DNA from: Escherichia coli
GTDB lineage: Bacteria; Pseudomonadota; Gammaproteobacteria; Enterobacterales; Enterobacteriaceae
Strand: one strand, 5' to 3'
Assembly (NCBI RefSeq): GCF_041886205.1
Contig: NZ_CP169029.1
Length of the DNA: 64,000 bases
Each line of letters opens with the position of its first letter. Position 1 is the first letter of the stretch. Position numbers and translations under genes: made by a program. Shown here in pieces: positions 5,619 through 30,572 of the stretch. The notes below the pieces were generated by a model, which ran no database searches, was not told the origin of the DNA, and saw only the letters and a program-made list of their open reading frames with translations.

Positions 5619-6371
5619 GTTGTCACCCTGGACCTGGTCGTACATTTAAGAAATTAAATCATTTCAACTTGGTTGTTAACGCAACCTGTATTTTGTTAAC
5701 GCTGCGTTACGATGGAAAGTATGTCTGCGGAAATATTTTTAATAACTCACCCGCGCGTTGTATTTTTCTTTTTTTGTTCATACCAAAGTATTAAAACCCA
5801 CGTAAATACGCTGTTATCTACGCAAAAAATATTTTGTTTTCTTTTAAATCTCCGTTTTCCGCTATCAAAAATCACCAGACAGTCATTTTTCTTGCCCGTC
5901 GCTGATTGCTGCGATATGTCTTGCGCACAAGCCGTGACAAACCTCGTCTTTTTGCAGTAAAAAATTGTCCACGGAGGTGCGGAGAAAAAACAAGAACGTT
6001 TTACGTGACGAAAGGACTACACCGAAATATTTTTTATATGTATTATTAGTAAGTTATCACCATTTGTATGATTTTTTAAAATTGTGCAATAAAAACCAAA
6101 TGTACAACTTTTCTATCATTTCTAAACTTAATAAAACCTTAAGATTAACATTTTAATATAACGAGTTACATTTAGTTACATGTTTAACACTTGATTTAAG
6201 ATTTGTAATGGCTAGATTGAAATCAGATGTAATCCATTAGTTTTATATTTTACCCATTTAGGGCTGATTTATTACTACACACAGCAGTGCAACATCTGTC
6301 AGTACTTCTGGTGCTTCTATTTTAGAGGCAGCTGTCAGGTGTGCGATCAATAAAAAAAGCGGGGTTTCATC
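5619..6371. promoter_or_regulatory. csgB-csgD divergent intergenic regulatory region
   Basis: About 750 bp AT-rich non-coding spacer between divergent csgBAC and csgDEFG; known in E. coli as a heavily regulated promoter region; individual sites not mapped here. Confidence 0.6.
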
Positions 6372-11916: not shown

Positions 11917-12004
11917 GGTGAGGTGTCCGAGTGGCTGAAGGAGCACGCCTGGAAAGTGTGTATACGGCAACGTATCGGGGGTTCGAATCCCCCCCTCACC
12001 GCCA
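11917..12004 (+). tRNA. serX: tRNA-Ser (GGA anticodon, long variable arm)
   Basis: 88-nt sequence GGTGAGGTGTCCGAGTGGCTGAAGGAGCACGCCTGGAAAGTG...GGTTCGAATCCCCCCCTCACCGCCA with acceptor stem, D and T arms, CCA end; marks the island boundary. Confidence 0.9.
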
Positions 12005-12153: not shown

Positions 12154-12996
12154 CTATACTGCCAGCATGTCAGGATAGTGTTTTGCGATAATATCATTCA
12201 GTCTGTCAACCAGTTCTGGCTTCCTGAACGTGATGTGCGCAGAGCCCTTCTTAAAGTATTTAATAATGAACATCTCATCTTCATAGCATTCTTTTCCCTG
12301 AAGAGACCGGATGTGATCGTCCAGATGAATAGTTATGTTTTCCCTGTTGTCGGGGATCGGTTTGCCGCTGAACAGATGCAGCATTCTTTCTAGGTCGGCA
12401 AGTCTATCTGCCTGTTGCCCGGTGATAAGATGCAATCCCCACCGGTCCCACCTCACCAGATTGTTGACGATAATTTTATTGCCAAATTTACAGGGGCAAT
12501 TGGTTTTGTAATTCCAGCTCAACCCTCTGAAGAGGTTGATCACTCCTCGCTCAAACACTTCATCCTTATTCTGGTGTAGCTGCTCAAACGTACTCAGAAT
12601 ATTCTCTTCACTGATTTCCGGAAAATTATCGTACTCCAGTGACCGGTACCATGTATCACGGGCCTGTGCATCCATTAAGGAAAGCATCCCGGAGCATTGC
12701 ATCAGGTCACGCCAGATTTCGCGATCGAGATTGCGGGTGATAGCTTTCATTGCTGTATCAGGTTTATCCATGAGCCAGCAGCCGCAGCGAAAATCCTGTT
12801 TCATGGCCCAGTCCAGTGCGGTTTTACCGCCAATACTTTCTGTCATTGCTGATATTTCAGTCAGTTGCCGGATAAGTGTGTCGATTTGCAGCAGTGTAGT
12901 CTTTCGCACAGCCAGAATGTGGCGGATACTGGTTGAGCAGATAACGTCCGTATGCCCGTTGACCACTTCCGGACGGGCGATTGTGATGCCTGACAT
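12154..12996 (-). CDS. DUF4942-like protein of CP4-type prophage remnant
   Basis: 280-aa ORF directly downstream of the cbtA-like toxin and YeeW-like gene, the usual position of this family; family assignment from memory, not searched. Confidence 0.55.
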   Translation of the reverse strand: MSGITIARPEVVNGHTDVICSTSIRHILAVRKTTLLQIDTLIRQLTEISAMTESIGGKTALDWAMKQDFRCGCWLMDKPDTAMKAITRNLDREIWRDLMQCSGMLSLMDAQARDTWYRSLEYDNFPEISEENILSTFEQLHQNKDEVFERGVINLFRGLSWNYKTNCPCKFGNKIIVNNLVRWDRWGLHLITGQQADRLADLERMLHLFSGKPIPDNRENITIHLDDHIRSLQGKECYEDEMFIIKYFKKGSAHITFRKPELVDRLNDIIAKHYPDMLAV

Positions 12997-13309
12997 AATC
13001 GGTTTTCCTTTCTGTTTATAAATGAAAACGCCAGCCGTATTCAGGCTGGCGTCGGGGGAATGAAGTGTGGTGAGAAAGATAATGAGTGAAACTCACCGGT
13101 TCAGGTGCTGAAACTGCAGATGGCGCAGAGTTCGGACATCCTGTCGCGCCTGTTCGATACAGGGCAACAGTGCTGCCGAATCCGTTTTATCCTCATCGTT
13201 GTCAAAGATAATTTCCGATTCGCAGTCAATATTGTCCTGCAGCCACGCAATCAGAATATCCAGCGCCGTTTCTGTGGTTAATAATTTCATCCAGTGTCTT
13301 TTGTCCTGA

Positions 13310-13798
13310 TTACCAGTCGAAAGTGGGGAACCCCGGCAGACATTCTGCGCTGGCGTCCAGATGAATGAGACTGACGCCATAACGCCGGGTGAGTGTGACA
13401 ACCAGACGACGGAACGTTTTTGACAGGCCCAGGCGCTTAAGCCGCAGAACCGGGTATGACCACGCATCGGTACGTAACAGATAGCCGCTACCTGTGAAAT
13501 GAATCCATTCTGATTCACCAACGTCACTGGTCTGGTGTGACAGCGAGTACAACCAGGCGTTGTCCGTTTCCGTGATATGTGCGGTACTGCAGCGTATGCC
13601 GGCAAGGGTTGCAAATGGCGGAGGTGTGCAGGTTGACTGTTGGTCGGATTCCTCCACCACACGGAGTGAATAACCGTTTTCAGCGACGTTATTAATCAGT
13701 TCAGTGAGATTAACACCATCGACGTCAACGACAATGCGCCCCATGTTCAGTGCCTGCACGTTAACGCTGTCAGCTTCCAGCGTCAGGGCCAGTTTCAT
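13310..13798 (-). CDS. YeeW-like protein
   Basis: 162-aa ORF starting [36 protein letters not shown], overlaps cbtA stop by 4 bp. Confidence 0.5.
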
Positions 13799-14172
13799 CG
13801 TTTCGCCTCCTGATACTTACCCAGGGTAATGTTATTTACCGTTCGGTAATTGTCGCGGGTCATCAGGCCAGTCGCCCGGCGAGCCCGGAGGATATCGATG
13901 CTGTTTATTAACTGAGAGCGGGTACAGGCACTGAATTCCGGCTGGTCGGTACGCACCAGCGCGTATTTTTCCACGAGAAAATTCACCGCATCACACAGTG
14001 AAATGCCTGCCTCAATATGCTGCTCAATCACACGTTCATCGGCAAACGGTGTGTCATTCAGTGTAAGGCCGTAATGCTGGCCCAGTAGTCGGGAGAGCAG
14101 AGTCTGCCAGATGGTGACGGGAGACGGGCAGCTCGATGCCTCCCGTACGTGTGTATCGGGTAATGTTTTCAT
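13795..14172 (-). CDS. cbtA: Type IV toxin CbtA/YeeV family (cytoskeleton-inhibiting toxin)
   Basis: 125-aa ORF ...[54 protein letters not shown]... matches YeeV/YkfI/YpjF family. Confidence 0.85.
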
Positions 14173-14261
14173 ACTGAAGGTTTTCCTGATATGCAGAGAT
14201 GAAAAATGGAAAAGTGGCGTGGTGAAAGCACCAGGCCGGAGCAGAAGGTTATTCCGGTGGT

Positions 14262-14630
14262 TTACTTTTTCGTTTCGGGCGTCGGATAAACAGCCAGATA
14301 AACGTAACCACCGCTACCGAGAGTGTCAGCTTTGCAGGTCAGACCTTTTGCATACAGCGTGACGGTATGCTGATGGCGGGGATTCAGTTCACCGCTGGTG
14401 AGCATGAGTTCCAGTTGTTTCATCAGCAGCGGAAAGGCCTGGTCCAGGTGGTACGCATCTGCATCGCTGAACAGGCCTCTGATACCGGCGCGGTCGGCAA
14501 GGTAATGCAGGCGGTTACCCTCCTGCACCAGACGTGCCCCGAAACAGGGCGTCACGGTGCAGGGCAGCCCCCACCAGAGGCGGTCGTGATTGTCGTCGGG
14601 AAGTATTGTCCCGGGGAGTGTGTCTGACAC
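14262..14630 (-). CDS. cbeA: Type IV antitoxin CbeA/YeeU family
   Basis: 122-aa [55 protein letters not shown]... matches YeeU/YafW/YfjZ family. Confidence 0.85.
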
Positions 14631-14709
14631 GATAAAATCCTCACAGAAAATCGGTTAAGAATGGTCCGGTGGTGGCGATAATTCTGCTCATCTGAATACC
14701 CTTCCAGAC

Positions 14710-14931
14710 TCAGTTCAGAGTGACGCTCATCAGCCGGACATACGGGCCAAAACTGTCCTTACGACGTTCAGCAAACACGGCCAGCACACCGGGAATATCC
14801 TGCACTTCACGACCGGTATACGCTTCAGTGCTGCCGTGCCAGCGGTATTTGCCGGTACAGAACGGGAAAAGACGGGATGTCGGATGTTGTTGGTGAATAC
14901 GCATGGCTTCACCACGAGTGATAACTTTCAT
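14710..14931 (-). CDS. YeeT-like small protein (DUF987)
   Basis: 73-aa ORF in conserved position upstream of the cbeA/cbtA pair. Confidence 0.65.
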   Translation of the reverse strand: MKVITRGEAMRIHQQHPTSRLFPFCTGKYRWHGSTEAYTGREVQDIPGVLAVFAERRKDSFGPYVRLMSVTLN

Positions 14932-14993
14932 AATGGGATACCTCTGAAGACAGAAGATAAAAGAGAAAACAGGTGTGATGTGGTTGTGACGGG

Positions 14994-15485
14994 TTAAAGC
15001 AGACCATGTTCGGCAAAGGAGAAAACCTGGTTGCCACCGACTATCAGATGGTCCGGCACCCGGATATCCACCAGGCCCAGTGCCTGTACCAGACGTTCGG
15101 TGATAAGCCGGTCTGCCTTACTGGGTGTGACTTCACCGGACGGGTGATTGTGCGCCAGCACCACGGCAGCGGCATTGTGGTACAGGGCGCGTTTAATCAC
15201 TTCCCGGGGATGGACTTCCGTGCGGTTGATGGTGCCGGTGAAGAGGGTTTCACCGGCAATCAGCTGATTCTGGTTATTCAGATACAGCACCCGGAACTCT
15301 TCACGCTCCAGTCCCGCCATGTTCAGAATCAGCCATTCCCGTGCCGCACGGGTGGAGGTGAAGGCCACACCGGGTTCATGAAGATGGCGGTCCAGGGTTT
15401 TCAGGGCCCGCAGAATGAGACTGCGCTCACCGGGCGTCATCGCTCCGGGCAGAAAGGAAAGCTGTTGCATTGTGCTTCTCTCCAT
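14994..15485 (-). CDS. RadC-like JAB-domain protein (YeeS/YfjY/YkfG family)
   Basis: 163-aa ORF with JAMM-like motif VVLAHNHPSGEVTPSKAD. Confidence 0.8.
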   Translation of the reverse strand: MERSTMQQLSFLPGAMTPGERSLILRALKTLDRHLHEPGVAFTSTRAAREWLILNMAGLEREEFRVLYLNNQNQLIAGETLFTGTINRTEVHPREVIKRALYHNAAAVVLAHNHPSGEVTPSKADRLITERLVQALGLVDIRVPDHLIVGGNQVFSFAEHGLL

Positions 15486-15971
15486 TCAGTCGATGATGCG
15501 CATAATGGCGCTGCATTCCGGATGCTGCAGGGCGTAATCCCGCAACCGGTAATAATGGACCGTCATGGCATAACACTCCGTACGACAGGCGTGATGACTG
15601 TACGTCATCAGACAGGCAGCAATGCCGGCGGCTTCCGGGCTCATTTCAGCGCGGTTGCCGTTCATGGCATTGAACAGTACCCATGTTTCGTCATCATCGT
15701 CATCCGGTTCGGGGGCCATAAATGCCCCGCCGTTGTTCAGAGTGTACAGATTCCAGATACCACCGCAGTAGTCTTCGCACAGACGGTCCATCCAGCCGAA
15801 AACACGGGGCTCCAGGGTCACCCACTGTGGAATGAGGCCAAAATGCTGCGGCCAGAAGCTGATGCGCTGTTCATCAGGGACTATGGTGGCAACCAACTGA
15901 GGCTGGTCATTCCCTGATGCAGCGGTTACGGAAACAGAAGATGTGGTGGAATTATGTGAAATGGTTTTCAT
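15486..15971 (-). CDS. Antirestriction protein (KlcA/ArdB-like, YfjX family)
   Basis: 161-aa ORF abutting the radC-like gene; acidic stretch PEPDDDDDETWVLFNAMNG; typical CP4-type module order. Confidence 0.7.
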   Translation of the reverse strand: MKTISHNSTTSSVSVTAASGNDQPQLVATIVPDEQRISFWPQHFGLIPQWVTLEPRVFGWMDRLCEDYCGGIWNLYTLNNGGAFMAPEPDDDDDETWVLFNAMNGNRAEMSPEAAGIAACLMTYSHHACRTECYAMTVHYYRLRDYALQHPECSAIMRIID

Positions 15972-16025
15972 GAAATGACTCCTTAAAGGACAAATAAATG
16001 CGTGGTTTTCAGGGTAATGGCTGAA

Positions 16026-16844
16026 TCAGCGCAGGCTCTCCAGCAGCGTTTCCGCCATCACCCACAATGCGCGGTTGAGCTTAATGTCAGTGTCAATGCT
16101 GTGAATGGCACGGGTATGGATACGTTTTCCTTTAGCGCTGCGACCTGAAATTCCGCCTTTCAGCATATTCTCCTGAATGGTCTGATAAGCACTCCACAGG
16201 TCCTTACCGTAATCCTCCCGGCGTCGTGGCGTCAGAATGTCGGCGGTGGTGACGGGCTGATGTTCGTCACCATAACGGTAAGTCAGTGCCGCCTGTGCCA
16301 GCGCCTGGCGTGCCGGTGGCGGCAGAATCAGCGACTGCATGGCATCACGCTTTTCCTCAATCCGGTCAAACACGCCCACCACCTCGTAAGCCCCTTCAAT
16401 GACTCTGTCCACCACATTTCCCCGGTGCGGAACACGCACTTCCCCCAGAGACTGACCACAGACGCATCCGTTCTGGCAGACGAACCTGAAGTAACCCGGC
16501 AGCATCTGGTAGCTGGAGGTACCGTCATGAGAGTTGAGCAGAATAATTTCAGGGACATGTTCTCCGTTTATCTCTCCGGCCCGCCGCAGACGCAGCATGT
16601 GTTTTGTGTATCCCCGGCGGCCCGGGTCGCGCACACGGGTCTGGCAGGCGAAGAATGGCTGAAAGCCTTCCCGCTGCAGGCTTTCCAGTACGGTGATGGT
16701 GGGGATGTACGTATAGTTCTGGCTTCGGGACGTGTGTTTATCTTCCCCGAAAATCCCCGGCACATAGTGCATCAGTTCTTCGTGTGTCAGCGGACGGTCA
16801 CGGCGTATCTGGTTCGCATAACCAAAACGACTGGCTAGTCGCAT
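16026..16844 (-). CDS. DUF932-family protein (YafZ/YfjQ-like)
   Basis: 272-aa ORF in the conserved island module. Confidence 0.6.
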   Translation of the reverse strand: MRLASRFGYANQIRRDRPLTHEELMHYVPGIFGEDKHTSRSQNYTYIPTITVLESLQREGFQPFFACQTRVRDPGRRGYTKHMLRLRRAGEINGEHVPEIILLNSHDGTSSYQMLPGYFRFVCQNGCVCGQSLGEVRVPHRGNVVDRVIEGAYEVVGVFDRIEEKRDAMQSLILPPPARQALAQAALTYRYGDEHQPVTTADILTPRRREDYGKDLWSAYQTIQENMLKGGISGRSAKGKRIHTRAIHSIDTDIKLNRALWVMAETLLESLR

Positions 16845-16943
16845 AATTTGCTCCTTATCGGTGGTTAAGATTTACTGGTGTAATAAATGAAAAAGCCACG
16901 TCTCCCGGAGAAGACGCGGCCTGATGGGTGAAATGAATGACGT

Positions 16944-17177
16944 TTATTGTCTGAGAAGACCGTCACTGGCGAGCCGCGTATTAAGCACCTTTCCGGCATC
17001 GGGTTCAGAATTCCGGCAGCGCCAGCGTCGCTGACCTTCCGCGTTGCGGATAACCCGACGGAAATGCATTCCCGGGTCATCCTGGATAAACACATTGCGG
17101 TAAGCGGTTATGACAGCAACCGCCTGCCCGTATGAGAAAGATCCTTCAGCCAGGACATACTCTGTGTAACCCGGCAT
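16944..17177 (-). CDS. Small DUF905-like protein (YkfF-like)
   Basis: 77-aa [37 protein letters not shown]...; size and context only. Confidence 0.4.
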
Positions 17178-17255: not shown

Positions 17256-17711
17256 TCAGTTAACGTTTTTTCCGGAAACGGTAATCAGCAGTGGATGGTA
17301 GTCCTGGGGATTGAAAACCGATAACGGCAGACTGACACGATGGCCGTTACTTTCTTCAGTTGCTTTAATGATTTCGGTTGTGGCGACATTTTCCACGCAC
17401 TCCGTTTCCAGAAATGCGTCTGTGGTTCGCGTGGCATTACTGTCACCAAAAGCTTCCGTTTCCATTTTTCTGGTCACCAGCGTCTGACCATATTTGTCTT
17501 TGAGTTGCAGAGTGATGGTGAGGGGGCCAAATCCTTCATCGTTTCCGCCATTATCCAGCCGGAACTGGTAAGCACAAATATTTCCCGGGAGCCATATCGT
17601 ATCTGTATTGCGTATACTGATGTAACGTTGATCCTGTGCCCGGAGTGGGGCAGACCACGTTAACCCCAGAATGAAGGCGGTAATCATGCAGGTTTTGAAC
17701 AGGTGAATCAT
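17256..17711 (-). CDS. Hypothetical secreted protein
   Basis: 151-aa ORF with N-terminal signal peptide (MIHLFKTCMITAFILGLTWSAPLRA). Confidence 0.4.
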   Translation of the reverse strand: MIHLFKTCMITAFILGLTWSAPLRAQDQRYISIRNTDTIWLPGNICAYQFRLDNGGNDEGFGPLTITLQLKDKYGQTLVTRKMETEAFGDSNATRTTDAFLETECVENVATTEIIKATEESNGHRVSLPLSVFNPQDYHPLLITVSGKNVN

Positions 17712-20309: not shown

Positions 20310-20423
20310 TCCGTGATGAATATCATGTTATTGTTAATGCCAGCGAATGTGGCGTTGAAGATCCGTTGCGCCGGTCCGGGTCCCGGTCATGATGACCGGG
20401 ACCACAGAGAGGCGATGGTTCTG

Positions 20424-23270
20424 TCAGAAGGTCACATTCAGTGTGGCCTGACCGTTATACCCTTCAGCGCTGCTGCCGCTGACGCTGTGGGCATAACCGG
20501 CCTGAACGCCCAGGGTGATATTTTCCCGGACACGGGCTTCCAGTCCGGCCTGCAGGTCCAGTGATGTGCCATTCTGTGAGGGAGAGAACGTCATCCCGCT
20601 GCCTGCAGTGGAAGTCCCCACACGCATATCTCCCCGGGAGCTGAAGGTGCGGATAACAGAAGGCTGTACCCACCAGTTCACCGGTAATTCACTCACACTG
20701 TGTTTTGCACTGTCACGCAGGGGGGCACGGGATGAGGTGCCTTCGCCAAAGGTCATATCGTTGTGGCTGCCCAGACGGAAACCGGCACGCACATGTTGTG
20801 CACTGCCATGCCCGAACTTCACATAACCGGCGTTGTCCTTACCGTCATCCAGGGAAAGTCCCTGCCAGGTATACTGTAGTTGTGGCTCCAGCATCAGGTT
20901 GTCAGTGATACTGAAGGGCAGACCGGTTTCCAGTGAACCCAGCCAGCCCCAACCCCGGGCGCGGAAGTCGTTATTGTCCGTTGACGCTTTCATGCTGTGG
21001 CGGGTTCCCAGGGCCACAATGTCAGCCCACAGTCCGGAGGCGTTGTGTATCAGATTCAGGTATCCGCCCAGGCTGCCGGCATCATCCCGGACCGTGCCGG
21101 CGCGGGAGCCGTCATCATCCTTAACATCAACGGAAGAATGGCCTGCAGCACCATACACCCCTGTCGTCAGAGACATACCGGCAACCTCTGTTCTGAGCAG
21201 GTCACCCTCCAGACGGACGAAGCCATAGCTGCCGCTGCTTTCCGGCGTGGCTCCACGGGCAATACCGCCGTTGTTATCGTGACCGAGATGACCGCCCTGA
21301 ATGCTGAGACGGACGCTGTTATTTTCACCGTTTACACCGGTCTGATGGCTGCGGGAGCCTGCCAGAATCCGGTCATAGTCCATTGCCTGTGTCAGCATGG
21401 ATGTATACAGGGGGACTTCAGCACGATAAGCATTTTCACTGCGCAGGTACCAGTCTTCATCGCTGTCACGGTTCAGGGTGTAGTTAAAGGCGCCGGCCTG
21501 AAGCGGGCGACTCAGGGCAAACGCACCTTCTTCTGTGGTGGCGCCATTCTGTGCATCCACAACCCGGATACCCTGTCCGGAGGTTGCCACCCCGAGGTTA
21601 CTGTTTCCGACATTTGTAAACGCAAGCCAGGTTTTGCCGGTTGCCTGACCACCATTAATCACCAGCTGGTCAGAGGTATTGCTGCCATCAAGGCGAACAC
21701 GCATATTGATGGTGCCACCCTGACCGGTGAGGTTACTGGTGGTCAGTTTATGGAACGTTACCGGGGAGTCGCCTTTTGCAACAGCACGGCTCAGCGCGGC
21801 ATCCGGTGTCGTCTGATTATCAAAGCGAATCTCCCCTGCGTTAACAATATCGCCGGTACTGACCACATCACCATTCAGTACCATGCTGGCACCTTTACTG
21901 AGCTGTGTTCTGCCACTCAGATTTCCCCCGGCAGCCAGCGTCAGTGTTCCACGATGTCCGACAGTGGTGTTGCCAGCCTGTCCTCCGGCATTAACCGTAA
22001 AGCTGCCGCCATTTTCCAGCAGCAGGCCGCTGGCCTGACCGGAGATACCATCAATACTGAACTTACCGCTGGCATTGGTCCCCTCAACAGTGGCACCACT
22101 GTCTGCTATCAGGGCACCACCGGATGTCATGGTGACATCTGTTGCCTTACCACCGGCAGACACTGCCAGGATACCGCCGTCATCCACCAGGGTATTCTGT
22201 GCTGAATGGCTCTCCAGTACATCCAGACGACCGCCGGATTCCAGAACAACACCGTCAGCCTTACCGTTTTCCACAGTGAAATTGCCCAGACGGTTGCTGC
22301 CGGTGACGGTTGCCGCCGTACTGGTGACCAGTGCGCCTCCCTGCTTCAGGGTGACATTCGTGGCTGTACCACCGGCGTTCACCTGCAGTTTGCCTTTCTG
22401 GTTAACGGTGGTGAAATCCGCCAGACCACCTTCCTTGACAATCTGCCAGCCGTCACTGTTTACAACCGTGTCAGAGGCTGTGCCTCCGTTGTGCACATAC
22501 TGGTAACCGCCATTCAGTGTGGTATCCAGCGCATGCCCGTGTACCGTCTGGTCGCCGCCGGCATAAACCACAGTGGTATTTGCTGTTCCTTCAACAGCCA
22601 CAATCTGACGACCATTTTTATTGATGGTGGTACGTACGGCATTTCCGCGAACAAACTGCCCGGTATCACCATTTTCTGCATCTGGTCCCCCTTCCGCGCC
22701 GGTATTCACAACCGTGTCGGTTGCCATTGCGCCGGATTTGACGGCCTGCCAGCCCTTCTCATTAATGACGGTACCCGTTGCAATCCCGCCTTCATGTACC
22801 CACTGCTCACCGCCGTTCAGAGTGGTATTCACTGCCTGCCCCTGAAGGCTCTGTCCGCCTCCGGCACTGATAACCGTGTCTGAAACGCTTCCTCCGGCAT
22901 TCACTCTCTGAAGACCACCACCGGTGACAGTAGTGTTGTTGGCGATACCGCCATTTTGTATCCATTGCCCGCCGGTATTGGCCTCGTTATCCGGCCCATA
23001 CTCCAGACCGGTACTGATGGTCATTCCGTTGGCCGTACCGAGAACAATCTGGTTGTCATGATTTGTCAGTGTTCCGCCGCTCACGGTTTCTCCCGCCTGT
23101 ACAACCGTGTCAGCAGCCAGTGCCGGGACTGATGTGACAGCAGCAAGAGACAGCGCAATCGCCACACCGGCGCGTTTTCCCCGTGAGCGGGCCAGTTCGG
23201 AGGCCACCACCAGGGTACCCGTAATGTGATTCCATACCAGCCTGTAGCTGGTGTTCAGATGTCGTTTCAT
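20424..23270 (-). CDS. flu: Antigen 43 self-associating autotransporter adhesin
   Basis: Start taken at MKRHLNTSYRLVWNHITGTLVVASELARSRGKRAGVAIALSLAAVTSVPALA (extended autotransporter signal); passenger repeats and C-terminal beta-barrel ending ...NVTF; overlapping plus-strand ORFs rejected. Confidence 0.9.
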   Translation of the reverse strand: MKRHLNTSYRLVWNHITGTLVVASELARSRGKRAGVAIALSLAAVTSVPALAADTVVQAGETVSGGTLTNHDNQIVLGTANGMTISTGLEYGPDNEANTGGQWIQNGGIANNTTVTGGGLQRVNAGGSVSDTVISAGGGQSLQGQAVNTTLNGGEQWVHEGGIATGTVINEKGWQAVKSGAMATDTVVNTGAEGGPDAENGDTGQFVRGNAVRTTINKNGRQIVAVEGTANTTVVYAGGDQTVHGHALDTTLNGGYQYVHNGGTASDTVVNSDGWQIVKEGGLADFTTVNQKGKLQVNAGGTATNVTLKQGGALVTSTAATVTGSNRLGNFTVENGKADGVVLESGGRLDVLESHSAQNTLVDDGGILAVSAGGKATDVTMTSGGALIADSGATVEGTNASGKFSIDGISGQASGLLLENGGSFTVNAGGQAGNTTVGHRGTLTLAAGGNLSGRTQLSKGASMVLNGDVVSTGDIVNAGEIRFDNQTTPDAALSRAVAKGDSPVTFHKLTTSNLTGQGGTINMRVRLDGSNTSDQLVINGGQATGKTWLAFTNVGNSNLGVATSGQGIRVVDAQNGATTEEGAFALSRPLQAGAFNYTLNRDSDEDWYLRSENAYRAEVPLYTSMLTQAMDYDRILAGSRSHQTGVNGENNSVRLSIQGGHLGHDNNGGIARGATPESSGSYGFVRLEGDLLRTEVAGMSLTTGVYGAAGHSSVDVKDDDGSRAGTVRDDAGSLGGYLNLIHNASGLWADIVALGTRHSMKASTDNNDFRARGWGWLGSLETGLPFSITDNLMLEPQLQYTWQGLSLDDGKDNAGYVKFGHGSAQHVRAGFRLGSHNDMTFGEGTSSRAPLRDSAKHSVSELPVNWWVQPSVIRTFSSRGDMRVGTSTAGSGMTFSPSQNGTSLDLQAGLEARVRENITLGVQAGYAHSVSGSSAEGYNGQATLNVTF

Positions 23271-23479
23271 CAGCTTTTCCTTACAGAGGGTGAATAAAAA
23301 AGCCGGTACCCACAAATGTGGATACCGGCAGGTACAAAACAGCATGGTCAGATAAAGTGGTTTTTCCCGGGCATAAATGCTTCCCCTCTCTCATCCGCCA
23401 GAGAAGTATCAGTCCGTTGTGTGCAATTCCGTTCTGCATGATGAAGAGATTCAGCTGCCTTTTCGCAGACCATTAACCA

Positions 23480-23530
23480 CTATAAACGATCGATAGTAAC
23501 GATCAATACCTGTTTTATCGATCGTTTTAT
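23480..23530 (-). promoter_or_regulatory. flu phase-variation switch (three GATC sites; expected Dam/OxyR target)
   Basis: GATC at 23488, 23501 and 23520 in ...AACGATCGATAGTAACGATCAATACCTGTTTTATCGATCGTTTTATTC..., about 220-250 bp upstream of the flu start. Confidence 0.6.
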
Positions 23531-23642
23531 TCTATTAATAACAAGGCGGCCACGCAAGAGAAACAGGAGGGGTATGAGGTGTTTGTGTCATGTTTTCAGT
23601 TGGTTAACGCAATGTAATCAGGCATTTCCCCTGGCAGAGTGT

Positions 23643-24554
23643 TCAGAAGAAAATCCAGTTCCATACAGCGCGGGCAACAGAGACCACCGTGTCACGGACG
23701 GCACGCAGAACCGTACGGGCAACAGAGGCAACACAGACGCTCTCCGCCGTGTCAAATATCCGGTCCACCGCACCGGTAAACTGTTCACGGGCCTGAGCGC
23801 GGACAGATTCCGTGCGCAGCTCGTCCTGCAGGCGGGTCATCAGGGGACTGGCGGCATGGTCGGGAAGCGCTGTCATTAGCGCACTGACCAGCGTATCCAG
23901 CTCCCAGCCGGTGCGGGCCGATACGGCAACAACCGGATGTACGGGCCGGAACAGACGGAATACCGCATCTGTTTTTTCGCGAATGTTCTGTGCCTGTGCG
24001 GGAGAAGGCTGAATGCCGGCCATATCCCATTCATGGCAGGGCTCCGTTTTGTCGGCCTGCGTCACCACAAACAGCACCTGCTGATGTCCCCGGTGCAGGA
24101 TGTGTCGCCAGAAATACTCATCCACAGACAGGGCACGGTCATCGGCTTTAATCAGCCACAGTACCAGGTCAAGTTCAGGCAGAATGTCACGGTACAGGGC
24201 CTCATACTCTGCATCCCTGTCCCGGCTCTCGCCCACCCCGGGCAGGTCAGTGATAACCATGCTGTGACCGTGGCCACTCAGACGGAAGCGCCGTACTTCC
24301 CGGGTGCCGGCGTGAACATCACTGACCGGGGTGACCTCCCCCTGAAACAGTGCATTACAGAGTGAGGATTTACCGGCCCCGCTTTTACCCATAATGCCAA
24401 TCACGGGTTCGTGACGGGTGAGTTTGCGCAGATGTTCCAGGATGTGACGGGAAAGTGAGTAAGGCAGGGAGGAGAGCGGTTTTTCAATTGCCTCAATGGC
24501 ATCAGACGGATTCATACATGTATTCCCGGTGAAAAAAGACAAAACCCCGCGCAC
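23643..24554 (-). CDS. YeeP/YkfA/YfjP-family GTP-binding protein
   Basis: 303-aa ORF with P-loop GIMGKSGAGKSSLCNALF and DLPG motif. Confidence 0.75.
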   Translation of the reverse strand: MRGVLSFFTGNTCMNPSDAIEAIEKPLSSLPYSLSRHILEHLRKLTRHEPVIGIMGKSGAGKSSLCNALFQGEVTPVSDVHAGTREVRRFRLSGHGHSMVITDLPGVGESRDRDAEYEALYRDILPELDLVLWLIKADDRALSVDEYFWRHILHRGHQQVLFVVTQADKTEPCHEWDMAGIQPSPAQAQNIREKTDAVFRLFRPVHPVVAVSARTGWELDTLVSALMTALPDHAASPLMTRLQDELRTESVRAQAREQFTGAVDRIFDTAESVCVASVARTVLRAVRDTVVSVARAVWNWIFF

Positions 24555-24870
24555 CGGAAAGGTGGCGGGGGATTCACAACGATAATATCTGTCTGAAATT
24601 ATTTGGAATGCAGGTATATGCAGCTAATTTGTATCGGCTCATTAGTACAGAACTAAACCTCATCTGACAGTCCGCTCTATGTCATAAGCGGTCCTTATAT
24701 ACACTAAGGTAGAATTGTCTTCTGGGGCGGGGTTGTCCAAATAAAATCCTAAAGTATCTAATTTATACGTAGTGATTCAGTATCATGTGCTACGTGTTGA
24801 ATTATAAATTTAGTTTAAATTGGTTGTTTAGATATCTGCATGATAACTATCAGACCATTGTGGAGTATTT

Positions 24871-25389
24871 ATGACGATTCTTGAAGAAATGGAAGCAGAA
24901 GCATGGCATATCCTAACAACCATCTATACGTATCAGCGGTTGATGGAAGGCCTTACTAATAGCAGTACAAGATATGAGCTTGCCAATCAGTTGGTAGCCC
25001 TCAATGCATTGTTGGAAATGTTGGTGATCCGTTTAGCGCGTCTTGCGGATAAAAGGAAAGATGTGAGATCTGTATCAATGTTTTTGAAACGCGGCTCGTA
25101 TTCTGCTTCACCAGAGGCTGTGAAATTGGCAGCTGAAAAGTTCCTTGCACTCACAGAACCAGTATTAAAGATTAGGCATGAGCAGATTGCACATATGAAG
25201 CCCGGCACACTCAGTAGCTTCGAGCCTCGAGAACTTCCAAATGAAGCTCTGAGAGCAACTGAGGCTCTAATCGATCTCATTGACATTGCCAGAGGTCACC
25301 CTCAGTCTTACACATACCGAGTTGGCTCACAGGAGCCTGCCATTAATTTGAGAGCTTCAGTAGAGACTAGCGAACTAGTTAAAATCTAA
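24871..25389 (+). CDS. Hypothetical protein, 172 aa, possible HEPN-like R-x5-H motif
   Basis: ORF in AT-rich DNA; contains KIRHEQIAHMK; no family recognised; convergent with the 459-aa gene. Confidence 0.5.
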   Translation: MTILEEMEAEAWHILTTIYTYQRLMEGLTNSSTRYELANQLVALNALLEMLVIRLARLADKRKDVRSVSMFLKRGSYSASPEAVKLAAEKFLALTEPVLKIRHEQIAHMKPGTLSSFEPRELPNEALRATEALIDLIDIARGHPQSYTYRVGSQEPAINLRASVETSELVKI

Positions 25390-28133: not shown

Positions 28134-30572
28134 ATGGCTATCAAAAAAACCGAACTCTATTCTTCCCTGTGGGCAAGCTGCGACGAACTGCGTGGCGGGA
28201 TGGACGCCAGCCAGTACAAAGACTATGTACTGACCCTGCTGTTTATGAAGTACGTTTCCGATAAGTATAAAGGCGATCCTTACGGGATGATCGTGATACC
28301 CAAAGGAGCCAGCTTTGACGATATGGTTGCGCTGAAAAATGACAAAGAGATCGGCGATAAAATCAACAAAATCATCCACAAGCTGGCGGAAGAGAACGGC
28401 CTGAAGGGCGTCATCGACGAAGCCGACTTTAACGACGAAGATAAACTCGGCAAAGGCAAGGAAATGATTGACCGCCTGAGCAAGCTTGTCGGTATCTTTG
28501 AAGGGTTAGATCTCTCCAGCAACCGGGTCGAAGGCGACGATCTGCTGGGCGATGCCTATGAATATCTGATGCGTCACTTCGCAACCGAATCCGGCAAGAG
28601 TAAAGGACAGTTTTACACTCCGGCGGAGGTGTCACGTATTCTGGCAAAGGTGATTGGTATTACTCCCGATACGCCGCGAGATGCAACGGTTTATGACCCA
28701 ACCTGTGGCTCTGGTTCGCTGCTGTTGAAAGTGAATGATGAAGCCCGGCGCGGACTGTCGATTTTCGGCCAAGAGATGGATAACGCTACCAGTGCGCTGG
28801 CGCGGATGAACATGATTCTGCATAACAATGCCACCGCGAAAATCTGGCAGGGCAATACGCTGAGTGATCCGCAGTGGAAAGAGGCGAACGGCAAACTGAA
28901 AGCCTTCGATTTTGCCGTGGCGAACCCGCCTTTTTCCAATAAAAACTGGACCAACGGGCTGACGCCGAAAAAAGATCCGTTTGAACGCTTCGGCTGGGGT
29001 ATTCCGCCGGAAAAAAACGGCGATTATGCTTTTTTGTTGCATATCATTAAAAGCCTGAAAAGTACCGGCAAAGGCGCGGTGATCCTGCCCCACGGCGTAC
29101 TGTTTCGCGGTAACGCCGAAGCGAATATCCGTGAAAACCTAATCAAGCAGGGCTATATCAAAGGCGTTATTGGTTTGCCAGCCAACCTGTTTTACGGCAC
29201 CGGCATCCCGGCGTGCATCATTGTGATTGATAAAGAGCACGCCCACAGCCGCAAAGGCATTTTTATGATCGACGCCAGTCGGGGCTTTATCAAAGATGGC
29301 AACAAGAACCGCCTGCGTAGCCAAGATATTCACCGTATTGTGGACGTGTTCAACCATCAGCGAACGGTGCCAGGCTACAGCCGGATGGTGCCCTCCAGCG
29401 AGATCGCCGGGAATGATTACAACCTGAATATTCCTCGTTATATCGAGAGTGGAGAGCCGGAAGATTTGCACGATCTGACCGCGCACTTACAGGGCGGTAT
29501 TCCAGTGCGCGATGTAGATGCTTTGAAGGATTACTGGCGGGTATTCCCTGCCCTGCGTAATGTGCTGTTTGCTGACGACCACCCCGGTTACTGCCGGGCG
29601 CAAGTGGACGCGCAGCAGGTGAAACCGACCATTCTGGCTCATCAGGAGTTTAAGGATTTTGCCACCCGCAGCCTGCTACCGTTTAAGTCGTGGGTAAAAG
29701 AGGCAGGTCTGGAAGAGATCCGCAAAGGAGATAAACCCAAAGCGCTAATCCACGATATCAGCGAAATGCTATTGGCGCAGTACGCCAACAGTGAGTTGCT
29801 GAACAAATACAGCGTGTACCAGATCCTGATGGATTACTGGGCTGATGTCATGCAGGACGATGTGTATGTGATTATGCAGGATGGCTGGAAAGCCGCCGCG
29901 CAAATCCGCGAGCTTCAGCCGGTGAAAGGCAAAGATGGCAAAAACATCTGGAAAGAAACGCACGATTTCGAGTTTACCAAACGGCGCTACAAGGCCGATG
30001 TGCTGCCCCGTTCGCTGGTGGAAATTCGCTGTTTCCCGGAACTGCTGGATGCGCTGAACCGCGCGCAGGAGCGCAGTGAAGAAGCCAGTCGTCAGCTAGT
30101 GGAATTCATCGAGGAGCAGGCAGGGGAAGAGGATCTGCTGGCTGAGGTGAAAAACGATAAAGATAAGGTGACGCAAAAGCTGGTGAATGCCCGTCTGGCA
30201 CAGTTGAAGCCCCCCCCTGCCGACCCGGATGAGCTGGCAGTGCTGAACCGCTGTCTGGCGCTGATTAAGGCCGAGGCCAGTGCGAAAAAAGCGCTGAAAG
30301 CCGCACAGGAAGCGTTGGATCGAGCGGTATTTAAACATTATCCCACGCTGGATGAAGCAGCGATTAAAACGCTGGTAGTGCAGGATAAGTGGCTGGCAAC
30401 GTTGCAGGCAGGGATCAAAGCGGAGATAGAGCGTATTACCCAGCAACTGGCGTCGCGCGTAAAGGAGCTGGAAGAGCGTTATGCTGAACCGTTGCCAGCA
30501 CTTGAAGCCGCCGTTGAGGCGTTGAGCGAGAAAGTGGCCGGGCATTTGCGGGCGATGGGGCTGGAGTGGTGA
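28134..30572 (+). CDS. hsdM: Type I restriction-modification system methyltransferase subunit M with long C-terminal extension
   Basis: 812 aa; HsdM N-terminal domain (MAIKKTELYSSLWASCDELRGGMD), AdoMet motif VYDPTCGSGSLL, catalytic NPPF (FDFAVANPPFSNKNW); about 300-aa Ala/Glu/Lys-rich helical tail. Confidence 0.9.
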   Translation: MAIKKTELYSSLWASCDELRGGMDASQYKDYVLTLLFMKYVSDKYKGDPYGMIVIPKGASFDDMVALKNDKEIGDKINKIIHKLAEENGLKGVIDEADFNDEDKLGKGKEMIDRLSKLVGIFEGLDLSSNRVEGDDLLGDAYEYLMRHFATESGKSKGQFYTPAEVSRILAKVIGITPDTPRDATVYDPTCGSGSLLLKVNDEARRGLSIFGQEMDNATSALARMNMILHNNATAKIWQGNTLSDPQWKEANGKLKAFDFAVANPPFSNKNWTNGLTPKKDPFERFGWGIPPEKNGDYAFLLHIIKSLKSTGKGAVILPHGVLFRGNAEANIRENLIKQGYIKGVIGLPANLFYGTGIPACIIVIDKEHAHSRKGIFMIDASRGFIKDGNKNRLRSQDIHRIVDVFNHQRTVPGYSRMVPSSEIAGNDYNLNIPRYIESGEPEDLHDLTAHLQGGIPVRDVDALKDYWRVFPALRNVLFADDHPGYCRAQVDAQQVKPTILAHQEFKDFATRSLLPFKSWVKEAGLEEIRKGDKPKALIHDISEMLLAQYANSELLNKYSVYQILMDYWADVMQDDVYVIMQDGWKAAAQIRELQPVKGKDGKNIWKETHDFEFTKRRYKADVLPRSLVEIRCFPELLDALNRAQERSEEASRQLVEFIEEQAGEEDLLAEVKNDKDKVTQKLVNARLAQLKPPPADPDELAVLNRCLALIKAEASAKKALKAAQEALDRAVFKHYPTLDEAAIKTLVVQDKWLATLQAGIKAEIERITQQLASRVKELEERYAEPLPALEAAVEALSEKVAGHLRAMGLEW

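Follow-up and report, generated by a model that had tools for sequence, protein, structure and literature searches.

The gene at the centre of this analysis is an intact flu/agn43 coding sequence of the Cah class, encoding 948 amino acids on the minus strand (20424..23270) of a 64-kb stretch of Escherichia coli DNA, which we refer to throughout as the window. Its product matches the NCBIfam equivalog NF033177 (auto_Ag43, 'Ag43/Cah family autotransporter adhesin') over the full length of the profile (1-948/948), with 1974 bits against a cut-off of 1200. At the amino acid level, it is 97.5% identical to the 948-residue allele of ST131, which is annotated as cah, 88% identical to Cah of O157:H7 and 74.5% identical to Ag43 of K-12. 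The start codon is the ATG at 23270..23268 on the minus strand, whose reading frame we verified, and position 23271 is therefore the first intergenic base. A mechanically defined open reading frame begins at another ATG, at 23345, which lies 25 codons further upstream and would give a protein of 973 residues. This start was rejected, since the annotation of the homologues begins at the ATG corresponding to 23270, and since the stretch between 23345 and 23270 holds the terminator of the leader RNA, which is discussed below. Upstream of flu and on the same strand lies a YeeP-like GTPase gene (23643..24515), recognized by its matches to GTPase families, whose start at 24515 we adopted from the 873-nt annotation of its homologues. 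It is a conserved neighbour of agn43, with a 'GTPase family protein' annotated beside agn43 in each locus that was fetched.

The two genes belong to a genomic island whose boundary is marked by a tRNA-Ser(GGA) gene at 11917-12004. As this tRNA gene follows csgDEFG, ghrA and ycdXY, the site of the island is serX, and the core sequence flanking it matches E. coli at 99.8% identity. In addition to flu, the island carries an IrmA-like gene (17256-17711), a CbtA/CbeA toxin-antitoxin pair and an antirestriction gene, as well as a type I restriction-modification gene resembling hsdM at 28134-30572. Outside of it, in core sequence close to the csg genes, there is a match to the Rfam small RNA ES056 (6225-6316, plus strand; 119.7 bits, the gathering score being 43). 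The window itself is absent from the complete-genome collection, where its best match is 97% identical over 6 kb; for the 500-bp regulatory region the figure is 99.4%. Neither dam nor oxyR was seen in the examined parts of the window; both are near-universal in E. coli.

A sequence scan places three GATC sites upstream of flu: the promoter-proximal GATC-I at 23520..23523 (adenines at 23521 on the plus and 23522 on the minus strand), GATC-II at 23501..23504 (adenines at 23502 and 23503, respectively) and GATC-III at 23488..23491 (adenines at 23489 and 23490, respectively). Relative to the A of the flu ATG, they start at -253, -234 and -221. The original prediction of a cluster of three sites at 23488, 23501 and 23520, some 220-250 bp upstream of the flu start, is in this sense borne out, the actual distances being 221, 234 and 253 bp. 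Measured from start to start, the sites are 19 and then 13 bp apart, and this is also the spacing found in agn43 of K-12 MG1655, where they lie at 2318, 2337 and 2350 of the K-12 locus sequence (L001), proceeding towards flu, or at -222, -203 and -190 relative to the ATG. A pairwise MAFFT alignment with K-12 introduced an 11-base gap within the triad and paired GATC-III of the window with GATC-II of K-12. We rejected it and preferred the ungapped register, because the computed spacings are equal in the two sequences.

The triad lies next to what is, judging by position and homology, the promoter of flu. Namely, a -10 hexamer TAGAAT (23529..23534, minus strand) is found within the block TAATAGAATAAAACGATC, which consists of this hexamer, five bases and GATC-I. 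The block is the same in the window and in K-12, and the operator sequence GATCGTTnnnATCGATC is likewise common to the two. A -35-like hexamer, TTGCGT, is located 17 bp from the -10 (23552..23557, minus strand), and it falls below the threshold of the promoter scan because only three of its six positions match the consensus. In K-12 the hexamer reads TTGTCC, and among the alleles compared here it takes one or the other of these two forms, with TTG invariant. As for the start of transcription, the K-12 annotation of the small RNA IsrC begins at the G of GATC-I (L001 2318) and ends just before flu, while the Rfam IS102 model begins 2 nt upstream of GATC-I, at window position 23525. On account of these two starts, we infer by homology that position +1 of flu and of its leader RNA lies at 23523..23525 (minus strand), which would place the GATC sites near transcript positions +1, +20 and +33. 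A separate sigma-70-like match, TTGATC-16-TATAGT (9/12; 23506..23479, minus strand), falls within the switch, where its -35 overlaps GATC-II; it matches at the level of the consensus only, and 0.7 such matches are expected in the region. Among the alleles inspected, the T that makes TTGATC is found in the window and in strain 7/2 only, the remaining Cah-type alleles having TCGATC.

Comparison with K-12 was the natural check on the idea that these elements match the known architecture of a Dam/OxyR switch, and it supports that idea: the gene is an intact member of the Ag43/Cah family, the triad has the K-12 spacing and stands in the K-12 position relative to the -10, and the promoter/start block is identical. 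In particular, the locus shares with K-12 agn43 its gene family, the upstream GTPase gene, the block TAGAATAAAACGATC, the 19/13 triad and the GATC-II/III palindrome, as well as the leader terminator and the ribosome-binding site. What differs is the 15 bp from GATC-I to GATC-II (GATAAAACAGGTATT in the window and AATATCTATTTTATC in K-12), most of the leader, the -35 hexamer, as noted above, and the length of the leader, which is about 31 nt greater in the window, with GATC-I at -253 as opposed to -222. The proteins differ too, the one encoded here being Cah-like with 948 residues, whereas Ag43 of K-12 has 1039. The locus is of the same regulatory class as cah of O157:H7 and the 948-residue alleles of ST131 and Nissle 1917 (Ag43c, reported to have 948 aa; PMC11056357), with 97% identity over 500 bp, and these Cah-type alleles likewise have the triad at -253, -234 and -221. 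Unlike them, the window has a T for C before GATC-II (TTGATC as opposed to TCGATC), its island sits at serX, and another set of genes lies downstream of flu.

Between the promoter and the coding sequence, flu appears to be preceded by a structured leader RNA homologous to IsrC (Rfam RF00124, IS102 RNA; 23289..23525, minus strand). A cmscan search scores it at 71.2 bits, where the gathering score is 46, with all 206 positions of the model (1-206/206) aligned to 23525..23289 on the minus strand, and K-12 has an ncRNA, isrC, annotated at the equivalent position. The match extends over the full model, including the 5' hairpin, which derives from the GATC-II/III palindrome, and the 3' terminator, while the central part of the window sequence is poorly aligned and about 34 nt longer than the model. 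In this setting, the match is best interpreted as the leader of flu, and not as a small-RNA gene of its own. At the 3' end of the leader, a terminator scan and folding identify an intrinsic terminator or attenuator (23296..23329, minus strand), comprising a 12-bp stem formed by GCCGGTATCCAC and GTGGGTACCGGC with a 4-nt loop (23329..23302), followed by TTTTTT (23301..23296). The terminator finishes 26 nt ahead of the ATG and just upstream of the ribosome-binding site of flu, a Shine-Dalgarno sequence AAGGA located 7 nt before the ATG (23278..23282, minus strand) and conserved among alleles. The terminator stem is kept in all 16 alleles checked, and as its one variable position reads U.G, C-G or U-A, base-pairing has been maintained. 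This layer of control adds to the phase switch and is not in competition with it.

How strongly the elements of the switch are conserved was examined in 17 sequences, namely, the window and K-12, together with fourteen further loci of E. coli that span the range of identity, and one stray contig. All 17 have the three GATC sites, and 15 of them have the 19/13 spacing. The block TAGAATAAAACGATC, comprising the -10 hexamer, the start site and GATC-I, is identical in 16 of the 17, K-12 included, the exception being L010 (GIMC1409), where the -10 hexamer TAGAAT is replaced by AAGAAT. This same allele is one of the two with a 20/13 spacing, the other being L006 (RM13322), and both are annotated as frameshifted agn43 pseudogenes. 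The altered spacing and the damaged -10 may reflect decay of the switch following loss of the gene, as relaxed constraint would produce; with two cases, this is anecdotal. The alleles otherwise fall into two regulatory classes: a K-12 type, whose leader measures about 222 nt and which occurs in 1905 of 5426 complete E. coli genomes, and a Cah type, with a leader of about 253-254 nt, to which the window belongs and which is found in 3460 of the 5426 (64%). The GATCGTT...ATCGATC and TAATAGAATAAAACGATC elements are conserved, while the 17 bp in between and the remaining leader diverge into the two classes. In the loci inspected, the Cah-type switch core always lies between the GTPase gene and the Ag43/Cah gene, and a 91-bp core identical to that of the window occurs in 153 records. 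Regulatory class is not linked to the class of the passenger domain. Strain 7/2, for example, has the regulatory region of the window at 99.4% and yet encodes a 1039-residue protein that is only 76% identical, and this pairing of window-type regulation with a divergent protein points to recombination near the start of the gene. Beyond E. coli, a 24-base pattern of the switch was searched for in 100,044 species-representative genomes and returned a single match, L009 (JAIJJM010000733.1, 1560 bp), which is binned in a Collinsella MAG. Since its sequence is that of a Cah-type E. coli agn43 regulatory region, this is probably a mis-binned Escherichia contig. Exact matching with one genome per species, which makes for a weak test, gave no evidence of the switch outside E. 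coli.

Could the three GATC sites be there by chance or by hitch-hiking, with no regulatory role, so that flu would be set by its promoter and the terminator of the IsrC-type leader alone? Clustering as such does not speak against this. Namely, 300 dinucleotide-preserving shuffles give a mean of 1.08 occurrences of three GATC within 36 bp per 64-kb window; with about one such cluster expected, clustering alone is not significant, and we set it aside as evidence. The window does contain a second cluster, of three GATC in 20 bp (60029-60048), apparently inside a coding region, which fits about one chance cluster per 64 kb. It is also true that the leader terminator is strongly conserved and was reported in 2014 to control flu. 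However, GATC-N15-GATC-N9-GATC, the exact geometry of the triad, is found a single time in the window, with 0.01 occurrences expected, and, as seen above, most alleles have retained it in spite of their diverged flanks. The triad, moreover, accounts for the only GATC sites in 4.66 kb of significantly GATC-depleted sequence, which is the opposite of what drift would lead one to expect, and it is directly homologous to the experimentally proven switch of K-12. We therefore consider a triad devoid of function to be extremely improbable, and take the sites to be part of a switch.

The depletion deserves a comment of its own. The segment in question (20364-25025) is flanked by GATC sites at 20363 and 25026 and contains three, all of them switch sites, where 15 would be expected from trinucleotide frequencies. 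The flu coding sequence has none, as compared with 6.8 expected from shuffles of synonymous codons (0 of 300-500 shuffles reached zero), and GATC is the most depleted palindromic tetramer in this gene (0 as compared with 7.9). The GTPase gene also has none, with 3.2 expected. Eight of nine flu alleles, including that of K-12, are free of GATC in their coding sequence, in spite of differing by up to 34% at the protein level. One could imagine that such a desert is a selected part of the switch. By this argument, removal of neighbouring Dam and SeqA sites would slow processive Dam and prevent SeqA assembly, giving OxyR more time after replication to recapture its sites and rendering the OFF state heritable. 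The same island, however, has a second desert of about 4.4 kb (12727-17139), with no GATC where 15.5 would be expected, which covers a module of DUF932, antirestriction, RadC, CbeA/CbtA and DUF5983 genes. In E. coli EC958, moreover, GATC-free stretches of at least 1 kb have been described as a typical trait of mobile elements (Forde 2015, PMC4659465). Between the two deserts, the segment 17140-20363, with its IrmA-like, 573-aa and 262-aa open reading frames, is rich in GATC (24 sites as compared with 18.9 expected). In view of the second desert and of the EC958 report, the depletion more probably reflects the nature of these conserved mobile modules than a function in the switch, and we have downgraded it as a switch-specific feature; that it was selected as part of the switch appears unlikely to us. 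What the pattern suggests is that avoidance of GATC belongs to conserved modules of the CP4-44-like kind.

If the triad is part of a Dam/OxyR switch, one should be able to recognize a site for OxyR. The OxyR consensus of Toledano has the form ATAGnTnnnAnCTAT-N7-ATAGnTnnnAnCTAT, and we scored it along both strands of the 64-kb window. In the canonical register, with a 7-bp spacer, the score is 13/20 for the window as compared with 14/20 for the proven site of K-12, and 44 other positions in the window score at least 13. Canonical scoring is in other words not a discriminating test, as even the proven site attains only 14/20. A register with a 17-bp spacer, on the other hand, gives 16/20 and contains all three GATC sites, and is the unique top score in the 64 kb, the next being 14; this register was chosen post hoc, and one with a 13-bp spacer likewise gives 16/20. 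The expectation that the GATC sites lie inside an OxyR-binding sequence agrees weakly with the canonical 7-bp register and clearly only with the post hoc 17-bp register, and the OxyR site is best regarded as a candidate. The latter comprises two candidate half-sites, each matching ATAGnTnnnAnCTAT at 8/10 positions: ATAGAATAAAACGAT (23521..23535, minus strand), which overlaps the -10 and GATC-I, and ATCGTTACTATCGAT (23489..23503, minus strand), which covers GATC-II and GATC-III. They are 32 bp apart from start to start, the spacer exceeding the canonical one by ten bp, i.e. by one helical turn.

The conservation among the 17 alleles fits two half-sites 17 bp apart better than it fits a canonical contiguous site. 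The first half-site is identical in 16 of the 17 sequences. The GATC-II/III palindrome ATCGTTnnnATCGAT (23503..23489) is invariant at all positions that the consensus specifies for the half-site, varying only at the three 'nnn' positions. Both half-sites thus score 8/10 in 16 of the 17, with 7/10 for half-site 1 in GIMC1409. A near-identical half-site, printed as ATAGxTxxxAxCATAT, was given by Broadbent et al. (PMC2909390) in their study of Salmonella gtr, where published GATC coordinates imply a periodicity of 32 bp that was called consistent with reduced OxyR. The 17-bp separation seen here would correspond to the geometry attributed to reduced OxyR and fits the spacing implied by the gtr coordinates. 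The parallel extends to the logic of regulation, in that gtr (P22, LT2_I) and opvAB of Salmonella rely on competition between Dam and OxyR and have pairs of GATC sites 13 bp apart within an OxyR half-site, with the half-site spacing of reduced OxyR (PMC2909390; PMC4856963). Unlike agn43, gtr and opvAB have three or four half-sites, and OxyR can take up either activating or repressing positions upstream of the promoter, whereas agn43 has one repressing site, at and after the start, and neither the sequences nor the regulated genes are related. Based on the sequence, the most likely contacts of OxyR would be ATAGAATAAAACGAT and ATCGTTACTATCGAT.

This arrangement bears on a second alternative, in which the Cah type has inherited the switch with OxyR binding more weakly or in another register, resulting in biased expression (e.g. 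mostly ON) or in switching rates different from those of K-12. There are, indeed, two clearly distinct regulatory classes that differ in sequence from GATC-I to GATC-II. In the canonical register that is best for K-12, the window reaches 10/20 by hand count as compared with 14/20 for K-12, because the CTAT quarter-site of K-12 is AACA here, and the T shared with strain 7/2 at GATC-II creates the sigma-70-like match described above. Our search of the accessible literature found no OxyR-binding or switching experiment on the cah/Cah-type regulatory class, and switching may for this reason differ quantitatively. Against this alternative, both classes have the same 8/10 half-sites with the same 17 bp between them, the Cah class is the commoner of the two, and the geometry of the triad is kept wherever the gene is intact. 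Chaudhuri et al. found that promoters in both agn43 allele groups possess three GATC sites at comparable intervals and considered both groups likely to be phase variable (PMC2808357). In an E. coli methylome, furthermore, six unmethylated GATC positions are reported upstream of agn43 genes in general (PMC4752239), which would fit protection at more than one copy; agn43 is not named in the supplements of Blow 2016. All in all, a switch with altered behaviour strikes us as quite improbable, and in what follows we keep to the standard one.

The agn43 switch of K-12 is attributed to Henderson & Owen 1999, Haagmans & van der Woude 2000, Waldron 2002 and Wallecha 2002. As summarized more recently (PMC13337833; PMC4872104; see also PMC3764049), binding of OxyR to the unmethylated GATC sites of agn43 (flu) corresponds to the OFF state and their methylation to the ON state, with a switching rate of about 10^-3 per generation. 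Directly observed are the elements described here, with their geometry, conservation and homology to K-12; the position of the start site, the binding of OxyR, the difference in methylation and the switching between ON and OFF are carried over from the K-12 literature. By extension, a sigma-70 promoter with TTGCGT as its -35 and TAGAAT as its -10 would direct transcription from GATC-I or from 1-2 nt before it. While the sites are unmethylated, a tetramer of OxyR would bind across the triad, most likely contacting ATAGAATAAAACGAT and ATCGTTACTATCGAT, and it would both block RNA polymerase and shield the sites from Dam, leading to a heritable OFF state. If Dam were to methylate the sites after replication and before OxyR could rebind, OxyR would be excluded and the gene would stay ON. 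Each replication would generate hemimethylated DNA, over which OxyR and Dam would compete anew. Finally, transcripts initiated in the ON state would have to traverse the IsrC/IS102-type leader, whose intrinsic terminator would act as an attenuation step ahead of the coding sequence.

We are thus highly confident that the segment 23271-23560 is the regulatory region of an intact Ag43/Cah adhesin gene, equipped with the standard agn43 Dam/OxyR phase switch. For the 948-residue Ag43c of Nissle, a large clonal rise in expression has been described (PMC11056357), which is suggestive of a phase-ON clone; the paper's own analysis took another line. The switch itself and the leader RNA have already been described, as has the triad of GATC sites in alleles of both groups, and there is nothing new in principle in finding them here. 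The main use of the present analysis lies in annotation, with the conservation pattern of the two half-sites and the GATC desert as modest points for the specialist. For the biology of this strain, it means that the Ag43/Cah adhesin of the serX island is intact and, judging by its regulatory sequence, very probably expressed in an ON/OFF, clonally heritable manner. This bears on how results obtained from single colonies are to be read, be it in assays of aggregation or biofilm formation or in transcriptome and proteome studies (PMC3764049).
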